Positions 3,400 to 23,795 of a DNA stretch of 29,280 nucleotides are shown here, piece by piece. Numbering within the stretch: position 1 is the stretch's first letter; the number at the start of each line of letters is the position of its first letter. The translations under genes and the position numbers were made by a program. The DNA is from Armatimonadota bacterium (GTDB lineage: Bacteria; Armatimonadota; UBA5829; DTJY01), in assembly GCA_035686805.1 (NCBI GenBank), contig DASRZD010000350.1:1-29280 (forward strand). The letters run 5' to 3'. Below the pieces are notes generated by a model that did not search any database, was not told the origin of the DNA, and was given only the letters and a program-made list of their open reading frames with translations.

Positions 3400-3652
3400 G
3401 ATCCTCTACTCCCACAACTGCCTTGCCTCGCCGTCTCCCGCTTTCAGACGGGATCCCGCCAACGGCGGGAGAATGGCGAGTCTACAATCGTATTCAAGCA
3501 GGCTGAAGCAGGCTCGAAACACTACCGTCAGCTCGCCTTGGCTTGCTTCCTCCCGCTTGTAGCCTGGGGATTCGATTCCCAGGCTGTTTGTTGCTACCGA
3601 TTTCGATTAGCATACACGAAAACGCTCAGAGGGCGCAAGTGAGCATGAGGTA

Positions 3653-5611
3653 TCAGAGGTGCACGCCTGGGAATTTTCCGGAGAGAGCTTGAACAAGCTT
3701 GGGGTTGGGTGTGCCGCCGTACTCTCTGCAAAGCTGGACCTCCCGGAGCGACTGCTCATAGTTCTCATTCATATATAATGCGACCGCATAGTTGCCGTGG
3801 ATAGCAGCGTTGTCAGGCTTCAGGCGAATCGCTATCTTGAACTCGCTGATTGCTTCCTCCGTGCGGCCAAGGTTGTCGTAGAGCACTGCCAGGTTATTAT
3901 GGGCCGCCACCAGATTAGCATCAATGCGGATCGCTTCCTTGTATTCCTTTATCGCCTCTTCCCTTTGTCCGCGTGATTGAAGGATTACCCCGTTGTTCAC
4001 GTGGGCAGGGGCAGAGTTCGGCTTTGCCCGCTTCTGAAGTCTCTGTGCAAGCGCCGCCTCTACCCGACTCTGCCGGATGGCGGTCAGCCGGTCTTGAGCC
4101 TGACTAAGTTTCGGATCAACCGCCAACGCCTCCTGGTACTGCTCGACCGCCTCCTCAATCCGCCCAAGCTTCGCGAGGGAATCTCCGTAGTCACAGCGGA
4201 CGTGCGCCTCATCCTGGCGCATCGCCAGCGCCTTCTCATATTCGGCGACAGCCGGCGCATAGTCGCCCTTGTCGGCATAAGCCCGCCCCAAGTTCGAATG
4301 GGCAGGGTAGTTGTTCTCCGGCGACACCGCAAGGGCATGCTCGAAAAGGACAATGCTGTTCCGCCAATACCCCACCTGAAGCCAAGTCTGCACTGCAAGT
4401 GCGACAATGGCAAGGCTGGCGACCGCACCGAGTATCTTCCTTTTCCCCTTTCTCCCTTTTTCTCCGATACCCCATGCCAGCATTATAAATACGCCAATCA
4501 ACGGCACATAGGTATATCTATCCGCCATCGCCTGCGACCCGACCTGCACCAGGCCGATGACCGGAATGAGCGTAATGACGTACCACAGCCAGCCTACCAG
4601 CAGATACGGACGACTCCGTCGTTCCCTGATGGCGATCAGGCTGATACCTACCAGCACTAGAGCCGACAAGACGATCAGCCAGGCCGATATGGTGTCTCGG
4701 GGATGCGGGTAGAAGACCGCCAGGTCTTTCGGCCAGACCATCTTAACTATGTAGCTGAGATAGCTTACCAGGGCGTTCGAGACTCTCATCCCGACCGAGC
4801 ACGCTGCCAGGCTGCTGGCGGCATGTCCTCTATGCTGGGCGATCATGGTGATGACGCTGGATGCTGCGGCAAGAATGAGCATCGGCGACTTCTCGATCAC
4901 CAAGCGCGTCAGGCCGGCGCTTTTCAGCCGCCGTGAAGGCCAGTAATCCAGCATCAAGAGCACTAGCGGAAGGCTTACGAGCATCGGTTTTGCCATTAGT
5001 CCGAGGGCGTAAAGCAGCACAACCGCCGAGTATCTCTTCCAGCCGGGCCTCTCAGCATAGAGGACGTATGCGCCCATCGTCAGCATCCAGAAGACCGTGC
5101 TCAGGACATCCTTGTGCTCGGCAATCCAGGCGACTGACTCCACGTGGAGAGGATGTATCGCGAACAAGGCAGCGACAAAGAAGCTTTGCCAAACCGATCT
5201 CGTTGTCCGCATCAAGATTAGGAACAGCAGGATTATGCTCGCCAGGTGAAGCAGCAGGTTCGTCGCGTGATGGCCGAGCGCATTCGTGCCCCAAATCCGG
5301 TAGTCTACCATATGGGATATCCACGTCAGCGGATGCCAGTTCGAGTTGTAGCCGACATTGAATGCCCACAGAAGGTTCTTGACGCTCAATTGCTGCACGT
5401 GCGGATTCTGGGTGACGTATATGGGGTCATCATAGTTCACGAAGCCGCACTTGGCGAGCCGCGAATAGGGGATAAGCGTAACGATAACCAGCAGCACGCA
5501 GACGAGCAGGATGCGGGCTCTCGGTGTCTCCTTCAGTGTCCCGGGTCCGGCATCTTCTCGGCGAGCGCCTGCAGGAAGCCTGGATGAGGAGTTCCGCCCT
5601 GACTTCGGCAC
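3653..5611 (-). CDS. TMTC-like GT-C glycosyltransferase (PMT_2/DUF1736-type membrane domain) with C-terminal TPR array, paralog 1
   Basis: 652 aa. After TM1 comes the acidic loop FVNYDD, then NWHPLTWISHM, FAIHPLHVESVAWIAEHKDVLST, LGLMAKPMLVSLP, LDYWP and VQVGSQAMADRYTYVPLIG. TPR repeats follow, with the tail CREYGGTPNPKLVQALSGKFPGVHL. The start is GTG 5609-5611, preceded by AAGGAGG (5619-5625) at 7-nt spacing. It overlaps paralog 2 by 79 nt. Confidence 0.85.
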   Translation of the reverse strand: MPKSGRNSSSRLPAGARREDAGPGTLKETPRARILLVCVLLVIVTLIPYSRLAKCGFVNYDDPIYVTQNPHVQQLSVKNLLWAFNVGYNSNWHPLTWISHMVDYRIWGTNALGHHATNLLLHLASIILLFLILMRTTRSVWQSFFVAALFAIHPLHVESVAWIAEHKDVLSTVFWMLTMGAYVLYAERPGWKRYSAVVLLYALGLMAKPMLVSLPLVLLMLDYWPSRRLKSAGLTRLVIEKSPMLILAAASSVITMIAQHRGHAASSLAACSVGMRVSNALVSYLSYIVKMVWPKDLAVFYPHPRDTISAWLIVLSALVLVGISLIAIRERRSRPYLLVGWLWYVITLIPVIGLVQVGSQAMADRYTYVPLIGVFIMLAWGIGEKGRKGKRKILGAVASLAIVALAVQTWLQVGYWRNSIVLFEHALAVSPENNYPAHSNLGRAYADKGDYAPAVAEYEKALAMRQDEAHVRCDYGDSLAKLGRIEEAVEQYQEALAVDPKLSQAQDRLTAIRQSRVEAALAQRLQKRAKPNSAPAHVNNGVILQSRGQREEAIKEYKEAIRIDANLVAAHNNLAVLYDNLGRTEEAISEFKIAIRLKPDNAAIHGNYAVALYMNENYEQSLREVQLCREYGGTPNPKLVQALSGKFPGVHL

Positions 5612-7281
5612 AGGTACACCTCCTTCCAGGCATCGGCGTAGTCTCCCTTGAAGTAATACACCAGGGCCAGGTTGTTATGCGCTGCGGGGAAATCCGGTCT
5701 TATGCGGATCGCTTCCTGATATTCCCTCACCGCGCCATCGAGGTCGCCGCTCTGGTGCAGAACCAATCCGGTATTGTAGTGCGTCTCGGCGGACTGAGGG
5801 TTCATCTTGGAAGCCTGCCGGCTGATCTCCGCAGCCTCATCCAGTCTGCCAGCCTTCTGAAGCTGGCTGGCGAGATTCGACCGGGCAGGCGTATAGTTGG
5901 GATTAATGTTAACTGCTTGCCTGTATTCCTCTAGTGCGTCTTCAGCCTTTCCAAGTTCCGCATATGCGCTTCCGAGGCTATTGTGCGCAATGTAGTTGTC
6001 CCGGGTTACCGCGATAGCATGCTTGAAAAGAGTCACGCTATCCCGCCAATATCCCACTTGAACCCAGGTCACAAGAGCTAGGGCGAGCACTACCGCTAGT
6101 CCTCCGCCGGCAATCGTCCTTTCTCCCTTTCTCCCTTCTCCAATGAACCATACAGCCGCTATGAACAGGCCTATCAGCGGAATATAGGTGTATCTGTCAG
6201 CCATCGCCTGACTCCCAACCTGTACCAGGCCAATGACAGGAACGAGGGTCCCAATAAACCAGAGCCATCCGAACAACAGGTAAGGTCTCCTCCGGCTTTC
6301 TCGTATCGCCGCATAGGTCAGCGCCGAGAGGAGGATAAGGGCGCCTGCCACTGCCAAAGATGAAAGGCTGTCCCCAGGGTGGGGATATGCCGCCGCCAAG
6401 TTCCTAGGCCAGATCATCTTGAGAAAGTAGCTCGCATAGGAGACAACGCCGTTTGACACACGCACTCCCAATTGCACGGCCTCGAATCCGCTGACCGCTC
6501 CACCTGTCTTTTGAGCAAGATAGGTTAGCACACTCGAACCGCCAGCCATGACGATGAGGGGCAGCTTCTCCCAGATCAATCTCCACCCCAGCCTGATTCG
6601 GTCGAGCGGCCAATAATCCAGCAACAGCAGCACGAACGGCAGCGTAACGAGCATCGGCTTGGCCATCAACCCAAGGGCGAACAGCCCCATCACCGGCAAG
6701 TACCTCACAGCGCCGGGCTTCGCGGCGTACCTCAGATAGGCGAGTATCGTCAGCATGAAGAAAAGCGTGCTGAGGACGTCTTTGCGCTCGGCCACCCACG
6801 CCACCGATTCTACGTGGAGCGGGTGTACGGCGAACAATGCTGCAACGAAGGCGCTCTTCCACATTGAGCCTGTCATTCGAGCGAATATCAGAAGCAGCAG
6901 CAGAGTATTCGCGATGTGAAGCAGCAGGTTGACCAGATGATGCCCCAGCGGATTAGACCCGAACAGGCGATAGTCCATCATGTGAGACATCCACGTCAAA
7001 GGATGCCAGTTCGAGGTATATCCGATGTTGAACGCCCAGCCCACATTCTTCCAGGTCAGGTGCTGGACGTGTCGATTTGCCGTCACATAGTCGTCGTCAT
7101 CAAAGTTGGTGAATCTGCACCTGAAAATTTGTGAGTATGCCGTCAGAGTCAATACAGCCAGGACCAGGCAGATCAGCAGGAGATGGCGTTTGTTGATCGC
7201 CTCTAGCTTCCTGGGTCCGGCATCTTTTCGGACAGAGCGTTCAGGAAGTCCGGTATGGGACTGCCGCCGTACTTTTGGCAC
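5533..7281 (-). CDS. TMTC-like GT-C glycosyltransferase with TPR array, paralog 2
   Basis: 582 aa with the same motif set: FTNFDDDD, NWHPLTWMSHM, HPLHVESVAWVAERKDVLST, LLDYWP, ADRYTYIPLIG. The tail is CRSQGGTPHPGFLQALAEKMPDPGH. The start is GTG 7279-7281 with AAGGAGG (7289-7295) 7 nt upstream. It overlaps paralog 3 by 79 nt. Confidence 0.85.
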   Translation of the reverse strand: MPKVRRQSHTGLPERSVRKDAGPRKLEAINKRHLLLICLVLAVLTLTAYSQIFRCRFTNFDDDDYVTANRHVQHLTWKNVGWAFNIGYTSNWHPLTWMSHMMDYRLFGSNPLGHHLVNLLLHIANTLLLLLIFARMTGSMWKSAFVAALFAVHPLHVESVAWVAERKDVLSTLFFMLTILAYLRYAAKPGAVRYLPVMGLFALGLMAKPMLVTLPFVLLLLDYWPLDRIRLGWRLIWEKLPLIVMAGGSSVLTYLAQKTGGAVSGFEAVQLGVRVSNGVVSYASYFLKMIWPRNLAAAYPHPGDSLSSLAVAGALILLSALTYAAIRESRRRPYLLFGWLWFIGTLVPVIGLVQVGSQAMADRYTYIPLIGLFIAAVWFIGEGRKGERTIAGGGLAVVLALALVTWVQVGYWRDSVTLFKHAIAVTRDNYIAHNSLGSAYAELGKAEDALEEYRQAVNINPNYTPARSNLASQLQKAGRLDEAAEISRQASKMNPQSAETHYNTGLVLHQSGDLDGAVREYQEAIRIRPDFPAAHNNLALVYYFKGDYADAWKEVYLCRSQGGTPHPGFLQALAEKMPDPGH

Positions 7282-9110
7282 AGGTGCACCTCCTTCCAGG
7301 CCTGAGCATATTCTCCCTTGAAGTAGAGGGCGACCGCGAGATTGTTGTGTGCCTCCGCCAAGTCCGGTCTCAGGCTGATAGCTTTATTATACTCCGCTAT
7401 CGCCTCATCGGTCTTATCCTGTTGCTTCAGCGCCAGGCCGAGATTCGAGTGAGCCTCCGCGAACTTCGGGCATATTCTGATTGCCGCTCTGAACTCCTGT
7501 ATGGCCGCATCGATGTTTCTCTGATCGTAGAGTACGCCGCCCTTCTCATAGTGCTCCACCGCCTCTTTCGAAGGCGGCTGAACGCCGGGCTGCCTGGAAG
7601 ACCTTTGCCTGGCGAGGGTAATCTCCATGTTCTTGCGGGCATCCTCCATATTAGGGTCAACGCTGAGCTCCCGGGAATAGGCGTCTATCGCCTCATCATA
7701 CTTGTGAAGGGCGAAGTACGCGTTCCCGAGGCTGAGATAATACACCGGCATGTCGGATCGCAGCTCAATAGCTTTTGTCAGGAGATCCACCGCCGGCTGA
7801 TACTTCCCTTGTCTCGCCAAAGCAGTTCCCAGACTGGAGTAGGCGACATAGTTGTTCTTCGTAACCTTTAGCGCATGGCTGAAAAGAGTTACGTCATTCC
7901 TCCAATGCCTGACTTGGTTCTGTGTGAGGATTGCCAATGCCAGGACAATCACGCCGGCCCCTGCCGAGAGGGCAATCGGCCTCTTGCCGAGTACTTCGGG
8001 GATACCCCATGCTAGAATGATAAAGATGCCGATCAGGGGCACATAGCTATACCGATCCGCCATGGATTGTGCGCCAACCTGCACGAGGCCGATGACAGGC
8101 ATCATAGTGCCTACGAACCAAAGCCACCCGACAGCCAGGTAGGGCCTTTTCGCACGGAAGACGAGATAGGATAACAAGATCAGGATGAATGTTGCGCCCA
8201 GGGCCTGCCATGCGGGCGGCTTCACCAAAGGATAGAAGACGGCCAGCTTAGCCGGCCACACTGTCTTGAGCAGGTAACTTACATAGGAGACCAGAGCATT
8301 GGAAAGCCTGTGAGCCATCGGCACTCGCGTGAGAGTGCTCATGGCCATTCCCTGATTCTGTGCCATGCAAGTGACCACGCTCGAGCACGCCGACAGGGCA
8401 AACAGCGGTATCTTCTCGACAATCAGCGCCTGTAACCCCTTTTCCTGCTTCTTCGTCTTGCCGAATCTCAGTCGCCCCAGCGGCCAGTAGTCAAGCAACA
8501 GGAGCACCAGCGGCAGCGTAACCAGCATCGGTTTCGACATGAGGCCAAGTGCAAACAGTGCCATCACGAGAGCATATCTAGATACCCCCGGCTTCTCTGC
8601 ATAACTCACATACGCCCACATGGTGGTTAGCCAGAAGAATGTGCTCAGCACATCCTTGCGCTCGGCTATCCAGGCGACCGACTCCACATGCAGCGGATGG
8701 AGGGCGAACAACCCGGCCACGAATGCACTCTTCCAGAGCGATCCCGCCTGCGGCGAGCCCGGTCGAGCCGTCATCCGCCTGAGAACCACCAGCAGAAGAA
8801 CGGTATTCGCCAGGTGGAACAGAAGGTTCGTCAGATGGAAGCCCATCGGATTCAGGCCATACAGCCCCTTATCCACCATGTATGACAGCCACGTCAGCGG
8901 ATGCCAGTTCGCCAAGTCGAAGGTCGTGAAGGCATACTTGATGCCGGCAAACGGCAGGTCGGCTTTGAGGGAATGATTGTCGCTTACGTACTTGTCGTCA
9001 TCGTAGCTGATGAACTCGCCTTGAAGAGCGCCGTGATAGGCCGCGGCAGTCACCAGGAGCAGGCCGACCGCAATCAGATGGAATTGATGCTTGTTCAGAA
9101 ACTTCTTCAT
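7203..9110 (-). CDS. TMTC-like GT-C glycosyltransferase with TPR array, paralog 3
   Basis: Same motif set: FISYDDD, NWHPLTWLSYM, HPLHVESVAWIAERKDVLST. The tail is CQKYGGSPIPDFLNALSEKMPDPGS. I prefer ATG 9108-9110 (MKKFLNKH, AGGTGA 5 nt upstream) over the track's GTG at 9119, which would overlap the paralog 4 stop. Confidence 0.85.
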   Translation of the reverse strand: MKKFLNKHQFHLIAVGLLLVTAAAYHGALQGEFISYDDDKYVSDNHSLKADLPFAGIKYAFTTFDLANWHPLTWLSYMVDKGLYGLNPMGFHLTNLLFHLANTVLLLVVLRRMTARPGSPQAGSLWKSAFVAGLFALHPLHVESVAWIAERKDVLSTFFWLTTMWAYVSYAEKPGVSRYALVMALFALGLMSKPMLVTLPLVLLLLDYWPLGRLRFGKTKKQEKGLQALIVEKIPLFALSACSSVVTCMAQNQGMAMSTLTRVPMAHRLSNALVSYVSYLLKTVWPAKLAVFYPLVKPPAWQALGATFILILLSYLVFRAKRPYLAVGWLWFVGTMMPVIGLVQVGAQSMADRYSYVPLIGIFIILAWGIPEVLGKRPIALSAGAGVIVLALAILTQNQVRHWRNDVTLFSHALKVTKNNYVAYSSLGTALARQGKYQPAVDLLTKAIELRSDMPVYYLSLGNAYFALHKYDEAIDAYSRELSVDPNMEDARKNMEITLARQRSSRQPGVQPPSKEAVEHYEKGGVLYDQRNIDAAIQEFRAAIRICPKFAEAHSNLGLALKQQDKTDEAIAEYNKAISLRPDLAEAHNNLAVALYFKGEYAQAWKEVHLCQKYGGSPIPDFLNALSEKMPDPGS

Positions 9111-9111
9111 T

Positions 9112-10851
9112 CTATTCACCTGGATCAGGCATCTTCTCCAGGAGCGCCTGGAGGAACTCGGGGTTCACGGCCGTACCATTTTTCTCCGCGAGTTGTACTT
9201 CACTCCAAGCCTCATCGTAGTTGCCGGCTGAATACAACACCACAGCCAGATTGTTGTGAGCCGGCCCCAAGTTAGGCTTCAGCCGAATCGCCGCCCGATA
9301 CTCTCCTATTGCCTCGTCAAACTTGCCCTGGTTTTGCAGGGCCATCCCGAAATTGTAGTGTACCAGCGAAGTGTCAATGCCGAGCTGTAAGCTCTTCTGC
9401 GCGTCTTCCAGATCCGGATTGGCGCTCAGTCCCCTGGCATACGATTGGGTGGCCTCCGCATACTTGCCCAGGGTGAAATACACATTTCCCAGGCAGAGAT
9501 GATAGTGAGGCATGTCTGACCTTATTGCGATGGCCTTAGTGAGATACTCGACCGCCTGCTGGTAATCCTCTTCCGCTGCCAATGCCGCCCCCAGGTTGGC
9601 GTATGCGATATAGTTATTCTTCGTCACCTTGATTGCATGGCCGAAGAGGGCAATATCGTTCCTCCAATATCGTACCTGAAACCAGGTCCCAACTGCCAGA
9701 CCGAGTATCACGAGGCAGGCGACCGCTGCCAGAGCATTCCGGGGCTTTTCCCCCCACCGTTTTGTCTCTACGACTAGATCAGGCATCAGCCAGGCGACTG
9801 CTATGAACAGACCTATCAGGGGCACATAGGTATACCTGTCCGCCATGGACTGCGCCCCTACCTGGACGAGTCCGATCACGGGAACCATCGTGCCCAGGAA
9901 CCAAAGCCATCCGACGGTCAGGTAAGGCCGCTTCGCCCGAATGACCAGATAGGACAATGCGATCAGCATGAGCAATGCACCCAGCGCCTGCCATGCGGGA
10001 GGTTTCACCAATGGGTAGAAAACGGCCAGCTTCGCCGGCCAGATAGTTTTCAGCAGATAGCTCGCGTAGGAGACGACGGCATTGGATAGCCTTTGGTCCA
10101 GAGGCACTCGACCGAGAGTGTTTAGAGCCTGCCCCTGACTCTGAGCCATGCAAGTGATGATGCTGGAGCATACCGATAAAGCAAGCAGTGGAGCCTTCTC
10201 CAGCACCAGACTCGGCCACGGCTTGTCTCTCTTCAGCGGCCAGTAGTCGAGCAGCAGCAGCACAAAGGGAAGAGTAACCAGCATTGGTTTCGCCATCAGC
10301 CCGAGGACGAATAAACCGACTACGAGCGCATACCGGGCCGCCCCCGGCTTCCCCGCATAACTGATGTACGCCCACATGGTCAGAAGCCAGAAGAACGTGC
10401 TGAGAACATCCTTGCGCTCGGCTACCCACGCCACCGACTCCACGTGCAGCGGATGAACCGCGAACAGCCCCACCACGAACGCACTCCTCCAGAGCGATCC
10501 CGCCTGCGGCGAGCCCGGTCGAGCCGTCATCCACCTAAGGACTATTAGCAAGAGAAGGGTGTTCGCCATGTGGAACAGCAGGTTCGTCAGATGGAAGCCC
10601 ATGGGGTTCAGGCCGTAGAGTCCCTTGTCCACCATATATGACAGCCACGTCAGCGGATGCCAGTTCGCCTGGTAGAACGTCGTGAATGCCCACTTGACTC
10701 CGGCGATCGGCAGCCCGGCCTGGAGAAACGGATTGTTGGTCACGAACCTGTCATCGTCAAAGATGACGAACCCATTCGTCCACACTCCCCAATAGGTGGC
10801 GAGCGTGAGGACGACGAGGGCCAGTATGACGACGACCAGGTTCTTTTTCAT
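9112..10851 (-). CDS. TMTC-like GT-C glycosyltransferase with TPR array, paralog 4
   Basis: Same motif set (FVIFDDD, NWHPLTWLSYM, HPLHVESVAWVAERKDVLST). It is the closest relative of paralog 3. The tail is AEKNGTAVNPEFLQALLEKMPDPGE. The preferred start is ATG 10849-10851 (MKKNLVVV), 1 nt after the paralog 5 stop. The track's TTG at 10908 adds a non-homologous extension. Confidence 0.85.
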   Translation of the reverse strand: MKKNLVVVILALVVLTLATYWGVWTNGFVIFDDDRFVTNNPFLQAGLPIAGVKWAFTTFYQANWHPLTWLSYMVDKGLYGLNPMGFHLTNLLFHMANTLLLLIVLRWMTARPGSPQAGSLWRSAFVVGLFAVHPLHVESVAWVAERKDVLSTFFWLLTMWAYISYAGKPGAARYALVVGLFVLGLMAKPMLVTLPFVLLLLDYWPLKRDKPWPSLVLEKAPLLALSVCSSIITCMAQSQGQALNTLGRVPLDQRLSNAVVSYASYLLKTIWPAKLAVFYPLVKPPAWQALGALLMLIALSYLVIRAKRPYLTVGWLWFLGTMVPVIGLVQVGAQSMADRYTYVPLIGLFIAVAWLMPDLVVETKRWGEKPRNALAAVACLVILGLAVGTWFQVRYWRNDIALFGHAIKVTKNNYIAYANLGAALAAEEDYQQAVEYLTKAIAIRSDMPHYHLCLGNVYFTLGKYAEATQSYARGLSANPDLEDAQKSLQLGIDTSLVHYNFGMALQNQGKFDEAIGEYRAAIRLKPNLGPAHNNLAVVLYSAGNYDEAWSEVQLAEKNGTAVNPEFLQALLEKMPDPGE

Positions 10852-10852
10852 G

Positions 10853-12868
10853 TCAGTTATCGTCCAGGCGCTTGAGACCGGCCATAGCCTCCCGGCACGA
10901 TGGGTCAATCTCCAAAGCCCGGCGATATTGCTCGGCGGCCTCGCTTAGTTTGGCCTGTCCCTCCAAAGCTTTCCCCAGGCTATAATACGCATTTGGCAGG
11001 TCAGGATTGCATGCAATGGACTTGCGATATTCCGGGATAGCCTCATTGACCTTGCCCTGGCCGGCCAGCGCCAGACCCAGATTGAGATGGGCCATGGCAT
11101 GATCAGGCTCGATCTCCAGCGCTTCCCTGAATTGCGCTATCGCTTCATCTATCTTGCCCTCGTTGACCAGAATGATCCCCAGATTGTTGTGCGGCGGGGC
11201 CATTTGGGCGTTGAGGGTCATAGCTTTCAAGTACTCTGCCTTTGCCTCATTGGGCTTTCCCTGCAAATCGAAAACAAGGCCGAGGTTATAGTGAGCCAGG
11301 GAGTAATTCGGATAGAGGGCGATCGCCGTCCGAAACTCATCCGCGGCCTCGTCGAATCTCCCCTGATCCATGAGAGCGCCTCCGAGGCAGAAATGCGCCA
11401 GATCGTTCTCGCTCTTGATCTTTAGAGATTCCCGATATTGCCTCATCGCCTCGCCATACTCCTTTTCGTCCTCGTGCGCCATGCCGAGGTTGATATGGGC
11501 GAGGTAGTTGTTTCTGGTCACATCCACAGCATGCTGGAACAGCATACGGCTGTCCCGCCAATATCCCACCTGAACCCGCGTGGCCGCTGCCAACATGATT
11601 ACGATCGCACACGCAACTATGACTAGAGCGTTCCCAGGTGTTTCACCCCATCGCCCCATCGCCCCATCGCCCCGTCGCTTGGTCTCCCTGGCAAGATCGG
11701 GGAGAAGCGAGGCAACTATCAGGAAGAGACCTATCAGCGGGAAATAGGTATACCTGTCCGCCATCGCCTGCCTACCTACCTGCACCAGGCCGATAACCGG
11801 TATGAGCGTGATGACAAACCAGAGCCATCCTACTGCCAGATAGCGCCGTTTTCGTCCATAATAGAACACTAGACTGGTAATCGCTGCCAGGATGACCGCC
11901 GAGCCGGCGATCTGCCACACTGCGAGCGTATTGCCGGGGTGAGGGTAGAAGATCGCCAGATTATGGGGAAAGACCGTCTTTCCGACATAGCCCGCGTAAG
12001 CGACGATGGCATTGGCCACACGGACTCCGATCGGATAGTTCTGGAATGAACCGACGGCGCCTTCCTTATTCTGGGCTGTGAAGGTTATTATTGCCGAGCC
12101 GGCGGACATCGCCAGAAGCGGCATCTTTTCCAATATGAGCTTCAATTTGCCTGACTTCTCCATGCGCCCGAGAGGCCAGTAATCCAGCAGGAGGAGTATG
12201 ATCGGCAGCGAGACCAGCATGGGCTTGGACATCAGCCCGAGGGCGAACAGAAGGATCACCGGCACGTACCGCTTAATGCTCGGCTTCTCAGAGTAGAGCA
12301 CATACGCGCCCATGGTGAGCATCCAGAAGAACGTGCTGAGCACATCCTTGCGCTCGGCCACCCACGCCACGGATTCCACGTGAAGCGGATGGAGGGCGAA
12401 CAACGCCGCAACAAAGGCGCTCTTCCATGATGAGCCTGCCTGCATCGAGCCGGGTCGAGATGTCATCCGTCGAAGCACGAGGAACAGCAGGACCGTGCTT
12501 GCCATGTGGAAAATCAAGTTCGTTGCATGATGGCCAGCCGGGTTATCCCGGAAGAATTGGTAATCCGCCATGTGCGACATCCACGTCAGAGGATGCCAGT
12601 TGCCCGCATAACCGACGTTGAACGCCCAGGCAAGACTCTTCGCGGTCAGCCCCGCCTTTACAAAGGAGTTCCTGTACACGTAGACGTCATCGTCATAGTT
12701 AATGAAGGCGTTTCGGAATACCGGCATGTAGACGGCGAGCGTCACCACCAGGAGGACGAGGCATATCAGCAGCACTTGCTTGTTTTCGTTTAGCGGCCGG
12801 GCGGAGGCATCTTTTCGGATAGCAGCCTTATGAACTCCGGGTGCGGGCTTCCTCCGTATTTTCGACAC
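10853..12868 (-). CDS. TMTC-like GT-C glycosyltransferase with the longest TPR array, paralog 5
   Basis: Same membrane motifs (FINYDDD, NWHPLTWMSHM, HPLHVESVAWVAERKDVLST). It is the only paralog lacking the EKMPDPG tail, ending instead in EIDPSCREAMAGLKRLDDN. I prefer GTG 12866-12868 with AAAGAGG (12876-12882) 7 nt upstream, which is homologous to the paralog 1/2 starts and gives the same 79-nt overlap. The ATG at 12884-12886 (track start) is the alternative. Confidence 0.8.
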   Translation of the reverse strand: MSKIRRKPAPGVHKAAIRKDASARPLNENKQVLLICLVLLVVTLAVYMPVFRNAFINYDDDVYVYRNSFVKAGLTAKSLAWAFNVGYAGNWHPLTWMSHMADYQFFRDNPAGHHATNLIFHMASTVLLFLVLRRMTSRPGSMQAGSSWKSAFVAALFALHPLHVESVAWVAERKDVLSTFFWMLTMGAYVLYSEKPSIKRYVPVILLFALGLMSKPMLVSLPIILLLLDYWPLGRMEKSGKLKLILEKMPLLAMSAGSAIITFTAQNKEGAVGSFQNYPIGVRVANAIVAYAGYVGKTVFPHNLAIFYPHPGNTLAVWQIAGSAVILAAITSLVFYYGRKRRYLAVGWLWFVITLIPVIGLVQVGRQAMADRYTYFPLIGLFLIVASLLPDLARETKRRGDGAMGRWGETPGNALVIVACAIVIMLAAATRVQVGYWRDSRMLFQHAVDVTRNNYLAHINLGMAHEDEKEYGEAMRQYRESLKIKSENDLAHFCLGGALMDQGRFDEAADEFRTAIALYPNYSLAHYNLGLVFDLQGKPNEAKAEYLKAMTLNAQMAPPHNNLGIILVNEGKIDEAIAQFREALEIEPDHAMAHLNLGLALAGQGKVNEAIPEYRKSIACNPDLPNAYYSLGKALEGQAKLSEAAEQYRRALEIDPSCREAMAGLKRLDDN
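11646..11677 (-). repeat. 8-nt tandem repeat inside the paralog 5 coding sequence
   Basis: Plus strand reads ccccatcg ccccatcg ccccatcg ccccgtcg, which is 3 perfect units plus 1 degenerate unit. It encodes the loop RRGDGAMGRWGE. The unit length is not a multiple of 3. Confidence 0.8.
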
Positions 12869-14787
12869 AATTCTACCTCTTTCCATGCCTGGGCATAGTC
12901 GGCCTTTTCATAGTAGATCACTGCGAGATTGTTGTAGGCGGGGGCTAGGTTGGTTCTGAGGCACACAGCCTGATCGTATTCCTCTATCGCATCATCGAGC
13001 TTCTGCTGCTCCTCAAGCATCACCCCAAGGTTATAATGAGCGGCCGCCGACTGAGGATCCAGATTGAGCGCTATCTTGATCTCTCGAATTGCTTCGTCCA
13101 GTCTGCCTTGCTTGTGGAGTACGGATGACAGACTGGTGTGCGCCTCGACCAGACTCGGATCTATGTGCAGAGCGGCTTTGAACTCGTCCTCCGCCTGCTT
13201 GCCCCTGCCTTGCTCGGCATAGATATTGCCAAGGTTGTTGTGAGAGTTGGCGTCGTCGGGCCGGATGCTGAGCGCCTTTTTATACTCGGTGATCGCCTCC
13301 TCGACATCCCCCTTGAAGGTAAGCGCCTTCGCAAGATTATAGTGGGCCACGGCGAATCGAGGATTCAGGCGTATGGCTTCACGGATCTCACGAATGCCCT
13401 CATCAAATCCTCCCTGGACCGCAAGGACCATCCCCAGGTTGTTGTGAGCCGGCGGGTAGGTGGGGTCGATCTTCATAGCAGCCCTGTAGTGAACAGTCGC
13501 CTCGTCGAACTTCCCTTCGCCGGCCAGTGTTCGGCCAAGGCAATCCTCCATAACAAAGTTATCGGATGTGCAATCCAGCGCGTGCTGGAACAAGGTCTCG
13601 CCATCCTGCCAGTAGCCGACCTGGATTCGCGTCACTATGCCCAGGACCAGCAGCACGGCAATGCCCACAGCCGGAGCAAGCAAGGCCGCCCTCTTCCCCC
13701 TGACGTAGTCCGAGACCGCCCATACCACCATTATGAAGATGCCGGTCAACGGCATATAAGTATACCGGTCCGCGATGGCTTGCCCGCCCACCTGCACCAA
13801 TCCGATGACAGGCACGAGCATTCCAAGAAACCACAGCCAGCCGACCGTCAGATATGGCTTCTTTCGGCGAAGTGAGAATACGAGGAGCGATATACCGATC
13901 AGCAGGATTGCCGAAGCCGCCACTTTCCACGTCGCGAGGTCCGCGCCGGGGTGGGGGTACATGAGCGCCAGGTTATGCGGCCACACGGTTTTCCACAGGT
14001 AAGTCACATATCCTACCAGGGCATTGGCGATTCTGACCCCGAGAGAGAATTCCTGAAGACTTCCGAGAGCATTCTTGGTACCCTGGGCGATGACCGTCAT
14101 GACGCATGAAGCCGCCGCCAGGACCATCAGCGGGATCTTCTCCAGGACGAGGCCCGGCCATCGTGCCTTCCGGCCCAAAGGCCAGTAATCGACTAGTAGG
14201 AGCACGAACGGCATGGTAACGAGCATGGGTTTGGACAGCAGCCCCAGCGCGAATGCAGCGAGCACCGGCAAGTATCGGCCTATGCTCGGTTTCCTGGCAT
14301 ACCTCCGATAAGCCAGCATGGTCAGCAGCAGGAAGAAAGTGCTGAGCAGATCCTTGCGTTCGGCCACCCATGCCACCGACTCCACGCGAAGCGGATGAAC
14401 GGCGAACAGCGCCGCCACAAGCGCGCTTCTCCAGTAGCAGCCGGTCATCAAAGAGAGTAGAAGGAAGAGAAGGAACGCATTGGCGGCGTGGATCATCAGG
14501 CTGGTTAGATGGTGGCCGCCGGGGTAGGTGTTGTATAGTCCACAGTCGGCGGCGTGGGATATCCAGGTTAGCGGATGCCAGTTCGCAGCTCGGACGGCGG
14601 TAAATGCCCAGCGAACCGTCTTCATAGTCAGCCCTGCCTGGATATGCGGGTTATTGGCGACGTACTCGCCATCGTCATAGTAGATGATGAAGTCGTGCCC
14701 CAGCATCGGCCAGTAGGCAAGCAGAGTCGCCGTGATCAGAACAAGAGTGATAACAGCTTTCAGATGGCTTTTCATGAATTCTATCAT
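12790..14787 (-). CDS. TMTC-like GT-C glycosyltransferase with TPR array, paralog 6
   Basis: 665 aa with motifs FIIYYDD, NWHPLTWISHA, HPLRVESVAWVAERKDLLST and LVDYWP. The tail is CRKYGGSPHPEFIRLLSEKMPPPGR. The start is ATG 14785-14787, or the in-frame ATG 14773-14775 (MKSHLKAV). Confidence 0.85.
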   Translation of the reverse strand: MIEFMKSHLKAVITLVLITATLLAYWPMLGHDFIIYYDDGEYVANNPHIQAGLTMKTVRWAFTAVRAANWHPLTWISHAADCGLYNTYPGGHHLTSLMIHAANAFLLFLLLSLMTGCYWRSALVAALFAVHPLRVESVAWVAERKDLLSTFFLLLTMLAYRRYARKPSIGRYLPVLAAFALGLLSKPMLVTMPFVLLLVDYWPLGRKARWPGLVLEKIPLMVLAAASCVMTVIAQGTKNALGSLQEFSLGVRIANALVGYVTYLWKTVWPHNLALMYPHPGADLATWKVAASAILLIGISLLVFSLRRKKPYLTVGWLWFLGMLVPVIGLVQVGGQAIADRYTYMPLTGIFIMVVWAVSDYVRGKRAALLAPAVGIAVLLVLGIVTRIQVGYWQDGETLFQHALDCTSDNFVMEDCLGRTLAGEGKFDEATVHYRAAMKIDPTYPPAHNNLGMVLAVQGGFDEGIREIREAIRLNPRFAVAHYNLAKALTFKGDVEEAITEYKKALSIRPDDANSHNNLGNIYAEQGRGKQAEDEFKAALHIDPSLVEAHTSLSSVLHKQGRLDEAIREIKIALNLDPQSAAAHYNLGVMLEEQQKLDDAIEEYDQAVCLRTNLAPAYNNLAVIYYEKADYAQAWKEVELCRKYGGSPHPEFIRLLSEKMPPPGR

Positions 14788-14793
14788 GCCAGC

Positions 14794-14967
14794 TTAACCC
14801 CCAGGATTCTTAGGCCAGAGCATCTTCTCCCCATAAGTTACGTGCGATACGAGGGCATTGCCGATTCTCTCGCCAGGGGGGAGCGCTTCCACTCTCCAGT
14901 AGGCGGCGACTGTCACAAGGCAGAGCACCGCTGCAACCAGAAAGAGATTCCTTGAACCCCTATTCAT
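14794..14967 (-). pseudogene. 57-aa relic of a seventh TMTC-like paralog (TM1 fused directly to a mid-protein segment)
   Basis: Below the ORF-track size cutoff. My translation is MNRGSRNLFLVAAVLCLVTVAAYWRVEALPPGERIGNALVSHVTYGEKMLWPKNPGG. The first half matches the paralog TM1 (for example LVVVILALVVLTLATYWG). The second half matches the internal segment RVSNALVSYLSYIVKMVWPKDL of paralog 1. Its ATG (14965-14967) overlaps the GT2 stop in an ATGAATAG arrangement. Whether it is translated is unknown. Confidence 0.55.
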
Positions 14968-15712
14968 ATCTAGGGAACAGCTCCGATTTCACGAGCCGCC
15001 ACTTCGCCAGACGGAACTTCAGGGCAGTCCCCAGGCACCCAAATCCATATTTGACACTGCGCTTGAAGTTGATCGAGGAGGCGTCCGGAGAGTAGCGGGT
15101 CGGGCAGCTTACTTCGCCGATAATATGTCCAAACCAGAGGATCTGCGCCAGCATCTGGTTGTCGAAGACGAAGTCGTTATCGTTCTTCTCCAGCGGCAAC
15201 TGCTCCAGCAATTCCTTGGAGAACGCCCGGTAACCCGTATGGTATTCGGAGAGCTTGGCAGACATCAAGACGTTCTCTGCAAGGGTCAGAAAGCGGTTTG
15301 ATATATAGCGCCATGCAGGCATTCCCTCTCTGAGGGCTCGTCCTCCCAGGATCCTGGAGGCAATCACGCAGGGGTACAATTCGGCTGCAATCAGCGATGC
15401 CATCGCCGGGATCAACTTCGGCGTGTACTGGTAATCCGGATGGACCATGATCACTATGTCTGCGCCCTCCTCCAGGGCGAGCCTATAGCAAGTCTTCTGA
15501 TTGCCGCCATACCCCAGGTTATTGGTATGGGTGTGGACTTTGGTATTCGGCAGAGTCCTTGCGATATCCGTGGTCTCGTCATGGCTCGCGTCATCCACCA
15601 CTATCACCAGGTCCACAATGCCGTGTGACATCACCTCGTCATAAGTCTTTTTAAGTGTCTGAGCCGCATTATAGGCAGGCATGATTACCACAATTCTCTT
15701 GCCTTGAAACAT
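14960..15712 (-). CDS. Family 2 glycosyltransferase, polyprenyl-phosphate sugar synthase-like (DPM1/ArnC/GtrB-like)
   Basis: The N-terminus IVVIMPAYNAAQTL and VIVVDDASHDET form the classic GT2 (GT-A) signature, and the protein is short and soluble-looking. I prefer ATG 15710-15712 (GGAGG 7 nt upstream) over the track's TTG at 15715. Confidence 0.85.
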   Translation of the reverse strand: MFQGKRIVVIMPAYNAAQTLKKTYDEVMSHGIVDLVIVVDDASHDETTDIARTLPNTKVHTHTNNLGYGGNQKTCYRLALEEGADIVIMVHPDYQYTPKLIPAMASLIAAELYPCVIASRILGGRALREGMPAWRYISNRFLTLAENVLMSAKLSEYHTGYRAFSKELLEQLPLEKNDNDFVFDNQMLAQILWFGHIIGEVSCPTRYSPDASSINFKRSVKYGFGCLGTALKFRLAKWRLVKSELFPRYE

Positions 15713-15726
15713 CAAATTGCCTCCAC

Positions 15727-17379
15727 TTAGTCTTTTCTCTTGAGCACCATAATGAAATCGGAGCTTGTCGGCAGATACCCCTCTACATCCTCATCCCACA
15801 AGTACATCACGTTATCCTCCGACTCGAACTCCACCATTCCGACCATGTGATAGTATGTTTGCAGGTATTGCTTCGCCCAAGTGAATATAGTCGTATCTGA
15901 GTCCGGCCGAGCCAGCCATGACGGTGGGATTCTAACGAAAACCATATACTTCGGACGGCTGGTTTCCAGTTCTCGGATTGTATCCTTCAGCATCTGACGA
16001 GCGTACTTCTGGTGCTCCATCAACCCGTAGGTGTATATCATCCCTGTTGCCGAGCGCCTGTGTGCATAGAAGAACGTCTCGGGCTCGGATCCCAAAATAC
16101 CTATGACGTCATTCTTGTTGGTGTGGGCTTTCAAATACTTGGCGACCTCGATCATTTCGGGGAAGGGGTTGCTGCCGTATTCCAGGCGGGCTGCATCTGT
16201 AGGTGACGGCGCGAACCAGAACGGCCGATTACCGGCTGCTCCGAGGAACAGCGTCATTGCCGCGAGCACCAGCGGAATACCTCTCAAGTGAGCAGTGTAT
16301 CTGCATCTCGACATCCATCGCTGGCATGAGCTTACGGCCACTCCCGCCAGAAGCCCTATCGCGGCCAGGAACGGCACGAAGTAATGCGGCCTGAAATAGA
16401 ACCCGGGGCAGACTATCAGGGCGGCAAACAAAGCAAAGCCCCCAAGGAAAGCCCGTTTCTCCTTCAGCCTTCTGTCCAGGAACACGATGATGAGACCCAC
16501 TCCCGCAAGACCCCACAACCATACGAATGGACCCGTTATGCGGCCTATCTGGTGGCTGAAATTGGCCCATATCATCCTGCCTGTCGTCTGCGACTCGTAC
16601 TCTCTCGCGTAGTGGAACACCCAGAACCAGAACTTCGCAAAGACTCCGGCCTTATAAAGAATCAGGCAGGTAACTGCGAAGGGGATGACCGACCCTGCCA
16701 TGAGCAGGAGTTCCTGCCTTACTAAGCTTTTCCAGGCGATCGGCCGGGCCGCAAGATTTGCCCAGATGACATATAGAGCGGCGAATGCTACGAAGATAAT
16801 GGCATGCTGCTTCATGATGAATCCCAATCCCAGCAGCAGCCCACTCACGAAGAATAGATACGGTCTTTTCGACTCCAGGCCTTTCAGCATGAGAAGCATC
16901 CCGCCAAGCGCGTACGGCATAATGAAATGCGTCGCGTGAGCAGACGTCCCCTGCACACTCATGCTTATTGAGTTGAGCCCGTATGCTCCTGCCGCCACAA
17001 CAGCCGCCAATGGATCAACCAGCCGCTTTGCCAGTAGAAACAGGAGAACGATGGCAACAAGGTTAATCAGCAGTAGCCCCAGGTGGATTGCCACAATCGT
17101 CTGCCCGAAGACCGCCATAATAACGGCGTAAGACGCATAAACCCCCGGGAGCTTCATGTTGTAGGCAATCTTATACGGCGGGATGTGGTCGAGCATAAGC
17201 TGGCCCATGTAGGCAAATTCGCCTTCATCTCGCTCGAGGGGGATCGAAAGCATCCTGACTCGAATCAGGGTGACGGTCAACAGGATTACCGTGAGAACTA
17301 CCCACGCCCAGAGGTTCGATGTCTTGGCAGGAGTGCGACTAGCCGATTTCCTGGTTTTTCCCTTGTATTCTGCTGACAT
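15727..17379 (-). CDS. ArnT/PMT-like GT-C family membrane glycosyltransferase (GT39/GT83-like)
   Basis: 550-aa polytopic membrane protein. After TM1 comes the acidic first-loop motif PLERDEGEFAY typical of lipid-phosphate-sugar-dependent GT-C enzymes. A soluble C-terminal domain follows. It is the first gene of the cluster. Confidence 0.75.
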   Translation of the reverse strand: MSAEYKGKTRKSASRTPAKTSNLWAWVVLTVILLTVTLIRVRMLSIPLERDEGEFAYMGQLMLDHIPPYKIAYNMKLPGVYASYAVIMAVFGQTIVAIHLGLLLINLVAIVLLFLLAKRLVDPLAAVVAAGAYGLNSISMSVQGTSAHATHFIMPYALGGMLLMLKGLESKRPYLFFVSGLLLGLGFIMKQHAIIFVAFAALYVIWANLAARPIAWKSLVRQELLLMAGSVIPFAVTCLILYKAGVFAKFWFWVFHYAREYESQTTGRMIWANFSHQIGRITGPFVWLWGLAGVGLIIVFLDRRLKEKRAFLGGFALFAALIVCPGFYFRPHYFVPFLAAIGLLAGVAVSSCQRWMSRCRYTAHLRGIPLVLAAMTLFLGAAGNRPFWFAPSPTDAARLEYGSNPFPEMIEVAKYLKAHTNKNDVIGILGSEPETFFYAHRRSATGMIYTYGLMEHQKYARQMLKDTIRELETSRPKYMVFVRIPPSWLARPDSDTTIFTWAKQYLQTYYHMVGMVEFESEDNVMYLWDEDVEGYLPTSSDFIMVLKRKD

Positions 17380-17418: not shown

Positions 17419-17447
17419 ACTTTATCATTAGTAGGTCACAGAGTCAA
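17419..17447 (-). promoter_or_regulatory. Candidate sigma70-type promoter of the glycosylation cluster
   Basis: The minus strand reads TTGACT-17 nt-TAAAGT, about 35 nt upstream of ATG 17379, in the only AT-rich gap upstream of the cluster. Confidence 0.4.
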
Positions 17448-22588: not shown

Positions 22589-23734
22589 CTGAGGTTCGCA
22601 GCCATCGCAAAAGGAACTGCAATACCAAAAGAGGTTAGAGATAAGCTGCTTGTAGAGGCCAAACACCAGTGTTCGAAATGCCACGAGAAGACTGCGCATA
22701 TTCACCATATCACCAGTTTGGTAAAGGGCGGCACCAGCGACGAAGACAATCTGATTGTGCTCTGTCCCACCTGCCATGACAATGTGCACCTGGAGCACAT
22801 CACGGCCGATCAGCTTCGTCTTTATAAAAGGGGCTGGGTCGCGGTATGCCGACTCCGCGACATCGGGCTATTATGTGAGGTAGGCGACAGGGAGCTTTCA
22901 GAGATACTTGAACGCATTAGGGATAACTCCCGGCTAGATAGAATGGTTCATATCCTGGGTGAGTTCTCTGGAGGCAGGCGGCCAGCTGTCGTCGATCCAG
23001 TTCCTCAACTGGTGACTACACTGATCGACATCATGGAAAACAGTGCGGGGCAAATGTCGACGACTGCCTCAGTCAAGAAGAGCCTCGCCAAGGAGTTCTT
23101 CACGTTTTACCAACTCTTACATCGCATGAGGAACAATACCCTTCACATCAAGCAACTGCTTGACACGGACAAGCACCTGGATGGGGAACCTACGAATCTT
23201 CATAAGACCGATATGCCAAAGCTCATTCATGACCAGGCTGCTACAGTATTCTCCATGTATAGATTGCTCGTGGAGAAGTGGGAGTTCTTTGAGTTATACA
23301 TTCCGGACTTTTCTTATCATCTCTGGGCTCTGTTCAATTGCAGGGAGGGCATCCTCTGTCCGATCGCCCATGGATGCCACCATCCAGATATGGATTCCGC
23401 TATCACGGTATTCACACGGCTTGACAGCGAGATGATAACTAGGGATTTCGTCCGCTGGATTCCGTTCTTCGACTTGGCAGCCCATAAGGATCACTACCAT
23501 CCCACCGTAAATCATCTATATGACGTTCATGGCTACGAGTTCCTGACGTTCAATGTTGCCATGAAAAACAGTGAGAATTTTCGATTTCTATCTAAGGAAT
23601 TGGAGAGAATTATTTCGCAGTTGACGGATGCGATCAAGAGATTTGGGGAGTTTCTGCGCGAACACTTTGATATGCCTGATATACTAGAAGTAAATAAGAA
23701 TTGTGAATTGAGGAACCCCAGACCATGGGGCTAG
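22589..23734 (+). CDS. HNH endonuclease domain protein with a large uncharacterised C-terminal domain
   Basis: The track ORF (TTG 22718) starts in the middle of the HNH motif. The same frame is open back to 22556 and encodes ...KLLVEAKHQCSKCHEKTAHIHHITSLVKGGTSDEDNLIVLCPTCHDNVH. That is a complete beta-beta-alpha-Me/HNH core with both CxxC pairs. No ATG, GTG or TTG precedes it. The best candidate start is CTG 22589-22591, with GAAGGA (22577-22582) 6 nt upstream. I cannot assign the remaining ~300 aa. Confidence 0.7.
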   Translation: MRFAAIAKGTAIPKEVRDKLLVEAKHQCSKCHEKTAHIHHITSLVKGGTSDEDNLIVLCPTCHDNVHLEHITADQLRLYKRGWVAVCRLRDIGLLCEVGDRELSEILERIRDNSRLDRMVHILGEFSGGRRPAVVDPVPQLVTTLIDIMENSAGQMSTTASVKKSLAKEFFTFYQLLHRMRNNTLHIKQLLDTDKHLDGEPTNLHKTDMPKLIHDQAATVFSMYRLLVEKWEFFELYIPDFSYHLWALFNCREGILCPIAHGCHHPDMDSAITVFTRLDSEMITRDFVRWIPFFDLAAHKDHYHPTVNHLYDVHGYEFLTFNVAMKNSENFRFLSKELERIISQLTDAIKRFGEFLREHFDMPDILEVNKNCELRNPRPWG

Positions 23735-23795
23735 GGGTAATCGATCAGGCCGTCGTTATTCGATCAAGCTGAGCGTGATCTTGCAGGAGGGTAGA

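Follow-up and report, generated by a model that had tools for sequence, protein, structure and literature searches.

The gene cluster examined here occupies positions 17379 to 3653 on the minus strand of a 29,280-nt contig of an uncultured Armatimonadota bacterium (DASRZD010000350.1), a stretch that we refer to as the window. Its core is a tandem array of six genes, W1 to W6, whose products combine an N-terminal membrane domain with C-terminal tetratricopeptide repeats (TPRs). We hold with high confidence that these six paralogs are GT-C transferases of the TMTC family. The eukaryotic members, TMTC1-4, are protein O-mannosyltransferases of cadherins and protocadherins that depend on dolichyl phosphate mannose (Dol-P-Man). 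Taken as a whole, the cluster can be read as a system for glycosylation in the periplasm, with a monosaccharide linked to polyprenyl phosphate as the donor and, probably, proteins as acceptors. We put the chances of this complete reading at about even.

The initial annotation described eight intact genes and one relic on one strand, a layout that the open reading frame (ORF) table and the translations bear out. From the 17379 end, the genes are a PMT_2/ArnT-like GT-C glycosyltransferase of 550 aa (GTC550; 15727-17379), a GT2 glycosyltransferase of 251 aa that is a candidate polyprenyl-phosphate sugar synthase (14960-15715), the 57-aa relic of a seventh paralog (14794-14967) and the six paralogs, all packed or overlapping. 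W1 (12790-14787, 665 aa) carries its membrane domain at about residues 1-385, followed by the longest TPR array of the six. W2 (10853-12886) has 671 aa from a GTG at 12868 or 677 aa from an ATG at 12886. W3 (9112-10908), which has the shortest TPR part, comprises 579 aa from 10851 within a frame open to 10908 (598 aa), and W4 (7203-9119) comprises 635 aa from 9110 within a frame open to 9119 (638 aa). W5 (5533-7281, 582 aa) served as the reference for structure and profile. The last gene of the array, W6 (3653-5611, 652 aa), shows an 'AEHKD' variant. Since six genes of about 600 codons stand in tandem and their products are 44-58% identical, the array is not a product of chance. The same genes are also present on metagenome contigs of ENA and Logan.

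TMTC homology and fold of the paralogs

The motifs that had been listed for the paralogs, Y/F-DD, NWHPLTW, HPL(H/R)VESVAW-AE(R/H)KD-LST and ADRY(T/S)Y-PL-G, were found in all six. Their membrane domains are 54-58% identical to that of W5 and 49-72% identical over all pairs, W3 and W4 being the closest pair (72%). Pfam TPR_1/2/11 and related families matched every paralog with E-values of 1e-16 to 1e-48. Placing the membrane domain by Pfam and NCBIfam alone failed. PMT_2 scored 18-26 bits on the paralogs against a cut-off of 26.1, and only W4 passed, at 26.2, by 0.1 bit. Pfam gave neither a PF02366 match nor a MIR domain in the paralogs, and NCBIfam returned TPR models only. Thus, among the Pfam families anticipated in the initial annotation, TPR and GT2 were recovered, PMT_2 was borderline on the paralogs and the DUF1736/TMTC model was missing. 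Sequence searches of the PDB gave TPR matches only for a full-length paralog and no match for the membrane-domain profile, and no TMTC structure turned up in them.

Residues 1-400 of W5 were modelled with AlphaFold2 (AF2) from 45 homologs (pLDDT 84, pTM 0.88), and the model matched only GT-C structures in the PDB at a Foldseek probability of about 1.0. ArnT ranked first, followed by Pmt4, STT3, DPY19, PglB, AglB, Pmt1/2 and Emb. The identity of an O-antigen ligase or polymerase, which had been raised as an alternative for this domain, was rejected on the basis of this fold and of the absence of any Wzy_C match in Pfam and NCBIfam.

Homology to TMTC was assessed with sequences published as a supplement by Eisenhaber et al. 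2021 (PMC7801869), in which the N-terminal domains of TMTC1-4 from human and Drosophila are aligned. The ArnT, Pmt1 and PglB segments aligned in the same supplement served as controls. A hidden Markov model (HMM) of the bacterial membrane domain, built from 45 family members, matched the eight TMTC sequences at 65-91 bits (E 3e-16 to 4e-24 for a nominal database of Z=1e6) and gave no match to the ArnT, Pmt1 and PglB segments with all filters off. Alignment of the bacterial and TMTC profiles by hhalign reached a probability of 100% and an E-value of 2.7e-37 over 380 of 397 columns. By both methods, the membrane domain that had been called TMTC-like is specifically homologous to TMTC1-4, and it has the GT-C fold.

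The motifs common to both sides are FxxDD, FAVHP(I/L)H(T/V)E(A/S)VA-x3-(G/E)RxD(V/L)L, K-x4-T, an acidic residue at D222 and A(E/D)RxxYxP(S/L)xG. Their shared residues, D61 and D62 included, are invariant in 45 diverse bacterial members, and hhalign also sets the 'HPLTW' of the paralogs against the 'YRPL' of TMTC. The conserved motifs M1-M7 described for TMTC include DD, SHKSYRP, RxD, KE(T/Q)xxT, DW and ERxxY. The helix order of W5 and its alignment to the TMTC model of 11 transmembrane (TM) helices predict that the DD loop and the C-terminal TPRs lie on the same side of the membrane, the periplasmic one. Plain hydropathy counting, which finds too few membrane helices (7-8), was left out of this topology.

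Several differences from TMTC1-4 weigh against this assignment and what is built on it. Pfam DUF1736 (PF08409), which in TMTC lies between TM7 and TM8, was absent from every paralog membrane domain, even at E<=10. The Glu of TMTC KE(T/Q) is replaced by an invariant Pro in the bacterial family, and the Asp of TMTC 'DW' by a hydrophobic residue that is followed by an invariant Y-P; both are proposed metal-binding residues in TMTC models. The 'DNPA' of TMTC is missing in the paralogs as well, though hhalign aligns the DUF1736 region, and DUF1736 escapes detection because of this loss. With the proposed metal ligands replaced, DUF1736 undetected and one copy already decayed to a relic, some or all of the paralogs might retain the GT-C fold without catalytic activity and serve as TPR scaffolds or chaperones. 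We consider this very improbable. DD, HPxHxE, RxD, K208, D222 and RxxY are invariant in the six paralogs and the 45 homologs, as expected under selection for catalysis, and the residues that stand at the replaced positions (P209, Y299-P300) do not vary either, pointing to a solution particular to this family and not to decay. From these alignments we conclude that, in all likelihood, the paralogs truly belong to the TMTC (GT105) lineage and that their TM7-TM8 loop has diverged.

The GT2, GTC550 and their linkage to the array

The GT2 belongs to PF00535 (74.8 bits), and its best sequence match in the PDB is the Dol-P-Man synthase of Pyrococcus furiosus (5mlz; phmmer E 1e-7). In the Foldseek search with its AF2 model (pLDDT 88), ranks 1-23 are all ArnC, GtrB or Dol-P-Man synthase (DPMS), with TM-scores of 0.60-0.73 and E-values of 7e-13 to 1e-9. 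The kinship with polyprenyl-phosphate sugar synthases that had been proposed for it is thus upheld by the fold. The best NCBIfam matches were PpgS (52 bits, cut-off 370), AglJ and a Dol-P-hexose transferase, and none of the models, ArnC included, reached its threshold. The orthologs of this GT2 are 62-77% identical across phyla, an unusually high conservation.

Some properties of the enzyme argue against its proposed role. Soluble GpgS/MpgS-type transferases are its next-best fold matches. By hydropathy and in the AF2 model, it has no counterpart of the membrane helices found at the C-termini of GtrB, ArnC and archaeal DPMS: an amphipathic helix (217-238) precedes its end at residue 251, and its sole hydrophobic window is a core segment (101-119). 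Its DxD motif reads H-P-D (residues 92-94). Human DPM1 and the catalytic domain of mycobacterial Ppm1 are also without TM helices. The H-P-D is invariant in the GT2 subfamily and aligns to the D-A-D of the Pyrococcus Dol-P-Man synthase.

The first GT-C of the cluster, GTC550, consists of an N-terminal multi-helix membrane domain and a C-terminal soluble domain of about 150 aa, without TPRs. Its PMT_2 score of 46 bits lies well above the cut-off of 26.1, and its first-loop 'RDEGEF' ('LERDEGEFAYMGQLM') stands beside the ArnT sequence 'GPDEGRYAEISREM'. The ArnT-like character attributed to it is confirmed by this score and by the D-E-G type motif, and its 2192 homologs are named GT39 or ArnT-like. 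The possibility that GTC550 is a seventh paralog that is devoid of TPRs was rejected, as its relation to the paralogs is remote (hhalign probability only 42%).

The linkage of these genes was followed in 80 TMTC-like genome loci with flanks of up to 10 kb and in 80 metagenome loci of the GT2. Tandem arrays are frequent among the genome loci: 24 of the 80 have at least two TMTC-like copies, 12 have at least three, and the maximum is six. Among the 139 immediate neighbours in the 80 genomes, which represent 187 Pfam families in all, Glycos_transf_2 is the top non-TPR family (7), followed by DUF2911 (6), PMT_2 (5) and GcvP (5); of these four, only GT2 and PMT_2 are related to glycosylation. The GT2 lies directly upstream of TMTC-like genes in a Chlorobiaceae locus (L034), a Pirellulales locus (L056) and 9 metagenome loci, the TMTC-like gene starting no more than 300 nt downstream in 9 of the 80 GT2 loci. 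The order GTC550-GT2-TMTC-like recurs in Pirellulales (L016), in Phycisphaerales (L078) and in two close Armatimonadota relatives (L084 and L085). GTC550 is present in the flanks of 5 of the 80 TMTC-like loci, and it adjoins GT2 and/or TMTC-like genes in L016, L026, L066, L076, L078, L084 and L085.

On the other side of the balance, an orthologous GT2 is found in the flanks of only 7 of the 80 TMTC-like loci (about 9%), and it accompanies 4 of the 12 arrays of three or more copies. A GT-C of either type is near the GT2 in only 26 of the 80 GT2 loci (about 30%), and in 2 of the 11 loci with flanks of 5 kb or more in both directions. No GT2 is present in L026, a syntenic locus of Armatimonadetes; there the 609-aa gene described below is followed by GTC550, two paralogs and then, as in the window, the E2 and Gfo/Idh/MocA genes. 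The link between GT2 and GT-C genes is real and recurrent but not obligatory. The claim that the array has its own donor synthase therefore holds in part: the GT2 is the commonest non-TPR neighbour and recurs upstream in several phyla, but most arrays, that of L026 included, are without it. The expected co-occurrence of GT2 and TMTC-like arrays fares similarly, in that the adjacency recurs across phyla while the majority of GT2 orthologs on long contigs lack an adjoining GT-C.

These counts bear on a different account, in which the GT2 does not serve the array specifically. On this view, a widely conserved housekeeping transferase, either a general polyprenyl-phosphate sugar synthase for many pathways or an enzyme with a soluble acceptor, would happen to adjoin GT-C genes in some lineages, and the donor of the paralogs would come from elsewhere. 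The high identity of its orthologs across phyla would suit such a general role, as would the 9 of 11 loci with 5-kb flanks that have no GT-C (L087, for example), the lack of a GT2 in L026, the missing TM helix and the closeness in fold of GpgS-like enzymes. However, same-strand adjacency to TMTC-like or GTC550 genes within 300 nt was found in at least five phyla, far more than the roughly 1% estimated by chance for a handful of copies per genome, and the rank of GT2 among the neighbour families and the 23 best fold matches, all polyprenyl-phosphate transferases, point the same way. A general synthase that feeds these GT-Cs would, moreover, still suit the model of a periplasmic glycosylation system. 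We regard a GT2 that is not the dedicated synthase of the array as unlikely, and it seems reasonably probable to us that the GT2 supplies the donor of the paralogs.

Where the GT2 ortholog is without an adjoining GT-C, it has other neighbours, as seen in L087 and L086 (9646-10786 and 10001-11529). In one such metagenome-assembled genome (MAG), it directly follows a T2SS-G/pseudopilin-like gene of 99 aa. In the other, it overlaps a class-I methyltransferase gene, and a PMT_2 GT-C and a TMTC-like gene lie as a pair about 5 kb upstream. DUF2911 and the glycine dehydrogenase GcvP, with 6 and 5 of the 139 neighbours, recur beside TMTC-like genes among the genome loci, which include L028, L029, L037, L041, L042 and L044. 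Their recurrence may reflect synteny among related genomes, possibly Terriglobia/Acidobacteriota MAGs, rather than a functional link.

Upstream of GTC550, a 609-aa protein with a signal-peptide-like N-terminus is encoded on the same minus strand (17526-19355). It has no Pfam or NCBIfam match. In four loci of Armatimonadota, its gene or a homolog immediately precedes GTC550: in the window, in L084 (91% identity), in L085 (54%) and in L026 (43%). This secreted protein may be an accessory factor or an acceptor of the system, and its membership is uncertain.

Array evolution, candidate acceptors and gene junctions

Comparison with the close relatives revealed ortholog lineages in conserved order. 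W1 corresponds to the first array gene of L084, W4 to the third of L084 and the fourth of L085, W5 to the fifth of L085 (and the fourth of L084) and W6 to the fifth of L084. No clear ortholog of W2 was found in L084 or L085, and W3 is a younger duplicate of the W4 line within the window lineage. The number of paralogs is 2 in L026, 5 in L085, at least 5 in L084 and 6 plus the relic in the window. W1 and its L084 ortholog share 94% identity over the membrane domain and 96% over the TPRs, and W5 and gene 5 of L085 share 72% and 80%. Over all such pairs, the TPR parts of orthologs are 66-96% identical, compared with 33-57% between paralogs. This pattern, in which orthologs keep their TPR domains and paralogs differ, agrees with TPR domains that have long been functionally distinct. 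In nucleotide sequence, the window matches L084 at 89-94% identity between 22478 and 12767, a stretch that comprises a 1019-aa gene, the 609-aa gene, GTC550, GT2, the relic and W1. Beyond 12767, at the boundary of W1 and W2, identity falls suddenly to 65-78% over W2-W6, which marks the distal array as a hotspot of divergence or exchange.

The initial annotation had recognised the 57-aa relic as the remains of a paralog, and the alignment agrees: its first 27 residues align to paralog TM1 and its last 30 to paralog residues from about 250 to 296, where 'RIGNALVSHVTYGEKMLWPKN' matches the segment 'R-x-x-N-A-L-V-S-Y...K...W-P'. Compared with an intact paralog, about 220 codons have been deleted and the remainder is truncated. 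A 10-nt deletion in the close relative L084 sets the two halves in different frames, and this frameshift identifies the relic as the decaying pseudogene of a seventh copy. A functional small membrane protein or flippase was considered for the 57-aa ORF and rejected, as it consists of two paralog fragments and is frameshifted in L084.

The proposed mechanism would follow the three-step logic of DPM1 with TMTC/PMT, GtrB with GtrC and ArnC with ArnT. Judged by its fold and gene neighbourhood, the membrane-peripheral GT2 would move one sugar from a nucleotide sugar to undecaprenyl or polyprenyl phosphate at the cytoplasmic face. The lipid-linked sugar would then be flipped to the periplasmic side. 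There, the six TMTC-family GT-Cs would pass it to periplasmic acceptors, an activity suggested by their family membership, and the putative catalytic machinery would comprise the first-loop Asp-Asp together with HPxHxE, RxD, K208, D222 and (D)RxxY. Homology to TMTC and analogy with TfpW, a pilin glycosyltransferase of Pseudomonas aeruginosa, make Ser/Thr residues in secreted proteins or in proteins of the envelope the most likely acceptors, which the TPR domains would recruit in the periplasm. The same donor probably also serves GTC550, on a different acceptor. The conservation of each paralog's particular TPR domain from species to species suggests that the paralogs may divide the acceptors among them.

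Other observations tell against this scheme. There is no flippase candidate within the cluster. No acceptor, sugar or activity is on record for any bacterial member in the literature searched. No pilin, S-layer or other obvious substrate gene recurs beside the family among the 139 neighbours. TPRs are also found on polysaccharide-export proteins, so their presence is no proof of a protein acceptor. The same chemistry might be directed at a non-protein acceptor such as lipid A or lipopolysaccharide (LPS), peptidoglycan, or capsular polysaccharide or exopolysaccharide (EPS), the TPRs docking the enzymes on envelope or export machinery. ArnT, the best structural match of the paralogs, is a lipid A transferase, and GTC550 has the ArnT-type 'DEG' loop. 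The polysaccharide-secretion TPR proteins BcsC, PgaA, VexE and PrsT are among the NCBIfam TPR matches, a TPR-polysaccharide deacetylase gene and glycoside-hydrolase-like genes lie nearby on the contig, and the lack of a linked protein substrate gene would be expected. Nevertheless, the sequence homology of the paralogs is to TMTC and not to ArnT. The functionally known enzymes with a GT-C domain and C-terminal TPRs that we found (TMTC1-4, TMEM260 and TfpW) all act on proteins. In the neighbour census, no polysaccharide-export, LPS or EPS biosynthesis gene recurs beside the family. Six individually conserved TPR domains also fit several protein clients more easily than one glycan. We therefore regard a non-protein acceptor as rather unlikely and lean slightly towards proteins as the acceptors of the array.

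The separations of -79 to +11 nt given in the initial annotation are reproduced with its start codons (+11, -8, +6, -79, +1, +1, -79 and -79), the value of -8 being the overlap of the relic with the end of the GT2 gene. Longest-ORF starts shift three junctions to -97, -56 and -8, so the exact values hinge on the choice of start. For W2, the GTG start gives an overlap of -79 and the ATG start one of -97. The W2 N-terminus 'ME.G..VSK..RKP' recurs in L084 gene 4, and L085 gene 5 has the related 'MEGGVFVPKARRHPNP'. The upstream frame is open too in L084 gene 4 (-97, 'MEGGVSVSKVWRKP'; W2 counterpart 'MERGRIVSKIRRKP') and in L085 gene 5. The GTG start of W6 ('VPKVRRQSH...') is also present in its L084 ortholog, with the same -79 overlap. 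Of the six paralogs, W2 alone lacks the C-terminal '...EKMPDPG' cap. Two observations suggest that the long overlaps are real: TM1 would otherwise lose its positively charged cytoplasmic leader, and the starts or open frames recur in L084 and L085.

Three identical overlaps of 79 nt are present in the array (12790-12868, 7203-7281 and 5533-5611), and the arrangement is also found in L084. In each, two frames of one DNA segment encode the end of the upstream protein, with its conserved cap ('...WKEV.LC..GG.P.P.FL.AL.EKMPDPG'), and the basic, cytoplasmic N-terminus of the downstream one ('(M/V)PK.RR...'). They suggest translational coupling.

The initial annotation placed the cluster behind a single AT-rich promoter region. 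The spacer upstream of the GTC550 gene is AT-rich, 146 nt long and holds a well-placed sigma-70-like site found by a consensus scan (TTGACT-17-TAAAGT, with TG; 17419-17447, minus strand), 40 nt upstream of the gene. However, matches of this quality are no commoner in this region than in shuffled sequence, so the site alone is weak evidence for a promoter. At the other end, the 253-nt spacer between W6 and the E2 acyltransferase gene contains a hairpin with a 13-bp stem (3559-3587; GTAGCCTGGGGAT-TCG-ATTCCCAGGCTGT). It is not a canonical terminator of the array, as its T-rich tail is on the plus strand and the array is on the minus strand.

Elsewhere on the contig, a plus-strand stretch (22718-24677) encodes a 338-aa HNH-like protein and a 300-aa protein that has a ThsB-like TIR domain (PADLOC ThsB, E 9e-22) and an N-terminal part like nucleoside 2-deoxyribosyltransferases. 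Its GC content is 0.47-0.50, compared with about 0.57. A BsuBI/PstI restriction-modification pair and an EVE-domain gene fill the same slot in L084. With its low GC and the other defence genes in this slot, the stretch looks like a variable defence islet.

Relation to known glycosylation systems

The family to which the paralogs belong is very large. At E<=1e-30, 29,113 clusters (50% identity) were recovered by an exhaustive profile search, and at E<=1e-3 there were 103,530. A word-indexed search returned at least 8000 candidates, all significant, and the 120th match listed still scored 433 bits. Genome matches at 45-58% identity span at least ten phyla, including Desulfobacterota, Planctomycetota, Verrucomicrobiota, Acidobacteriota, Armatimonadota and Hydrogenedentota, with further matches in Fibrobacterota, Chlorobiaceae, Nitrospirota, Gemmatimonadota and other groups. 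GT105 has been reported in bacterial genomes by CAZyme annotation, and in prokaryotes 'to a limited degree' according to a preprint. The TMTC family is far larger in bacteria than the literature suggests.

The initial annotation called bacterial TMTC-like proteins essentially uncharacterised. In the literature searched, we found no paper that characterises a bacterial TMTC/GT105 member and no reported bacterial targets. The statement needs qualification, however, in that TfpW has been studied and has the same architecture, and annotation pipelines already label members of the family as 'protein O-mannosyl-transferase' (JGI) or as 'glycosyltransferase family 39' or 'tetratricopeptide repeat protein' (NCBI). 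To our knowledge, bacterial protein O-glycosylation from a polyprenyl-phosphate-linked monosaccharide is established only for the actinobacterial Pmt (GT39) and a special case such as TfpW.

We tentatively propose that the bacterial TMTC homologs form a very widespread periplasmic pathway of protein O-glycosylation in diderm environmental phyla, in which a soluble GT2 loads one sugar onto a polyprenyl phosphate and arrays of TPR-guided paralogs act as substrate-specific 'writers'. Such a pathway might be a counterpart, possibly an ancestor, of animal cadherin O-mannosylation. If periplasmic protein glycosylation proves true, a large part of bacterial envelope biology is currently unannotated, and a tractable bacterial model would be at hand for the TPR-based substrate recognition of the eukaryotic TMTC pathway. 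The cluster of the window and those of L084, L085, L016 and L078 keep the candidate donor synthase with the transferases and provide a compact gene set for heterologous reconstitution.

Among the known systems, TMTC1-4 (CAZy GT105) share the architecture of the paralogs, an N-terminal GT-C domain of about 400 aa and 11 helices followed by TPRs on the lumenal or periplasmic side. The homology covers the full membrane domain, with DD, HPxHxExVA, RxD, K-x4-T and (E/D)RxxY in common, and several paralogs per genome are found in both cases. In contrast to TMTC1-4, the paralogs of the window are bacterial and periplasmic, presumably use undecaprenyl or polyprenyl phosphate as the donor lipid and do not keep 'DNPA', 'DW' and the Glu of KE(T/Q). 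Their genes also form a tandem series within an operon-like cluster that includes a GT2 gene and a further GT-C gene.

TfpW of P. aeruginosa, a pilin D-arabinofuranosyltransferase, is a GT-C of about 646 aa with 11 predicted TM helices in a model based on ArnT. Its periplasmic loop 1 carries a DDx motif that is essential, its C-terminal TPR domain is periplasmic, and it glycosylates Ser/Thr of a protein from a polyprenyl-phosphate sugar. As described, its architecture (GT-C with periplasmic TPR and the DD in loop 1) is like that of the paralogs. The tfpW gene, however, adjoins the substrate gene pilA, and the enzyme adds oligo-arabinofuranose (oligo-Araf) from a donor of the DPA pathway, whereas the window has a GT2-type synthase and no pilin gene.

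Actinobacterial Ppm1 and Pmt resemble the model of the cluster in that a GT2 polyprenyl-phosphate mannose synthase serves a GT-C that transfers sugar to proteins outside the membrane. Pmt, however, belongs to GT39, has no TPRs and is encoded by a single gene, while the paralogs of the window group with TMTC and lie at or below the PMT_2 threshold. The GtrA/GtrB/GtrC and ArnC/ArnE-F/ArnT systems are also encoded by clustered genes, and in them a GT2 makes an undecaprenyl-phosphate sugar that is flipped and then transferred by a periplasmic GT-C. GtrB and ArnC are the closest folds to the GT2 of the window, and the first loop of GTC550 is ArnT-like. These systems differ from the cluster in that they modify O-antigen or lipid A, contain a small flippase gene and have a GT2 with two TM helices. 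Set beside these systems, the cluster is of value as an entry to a very large uncharacterised bacterial family rather than as a new type of system.

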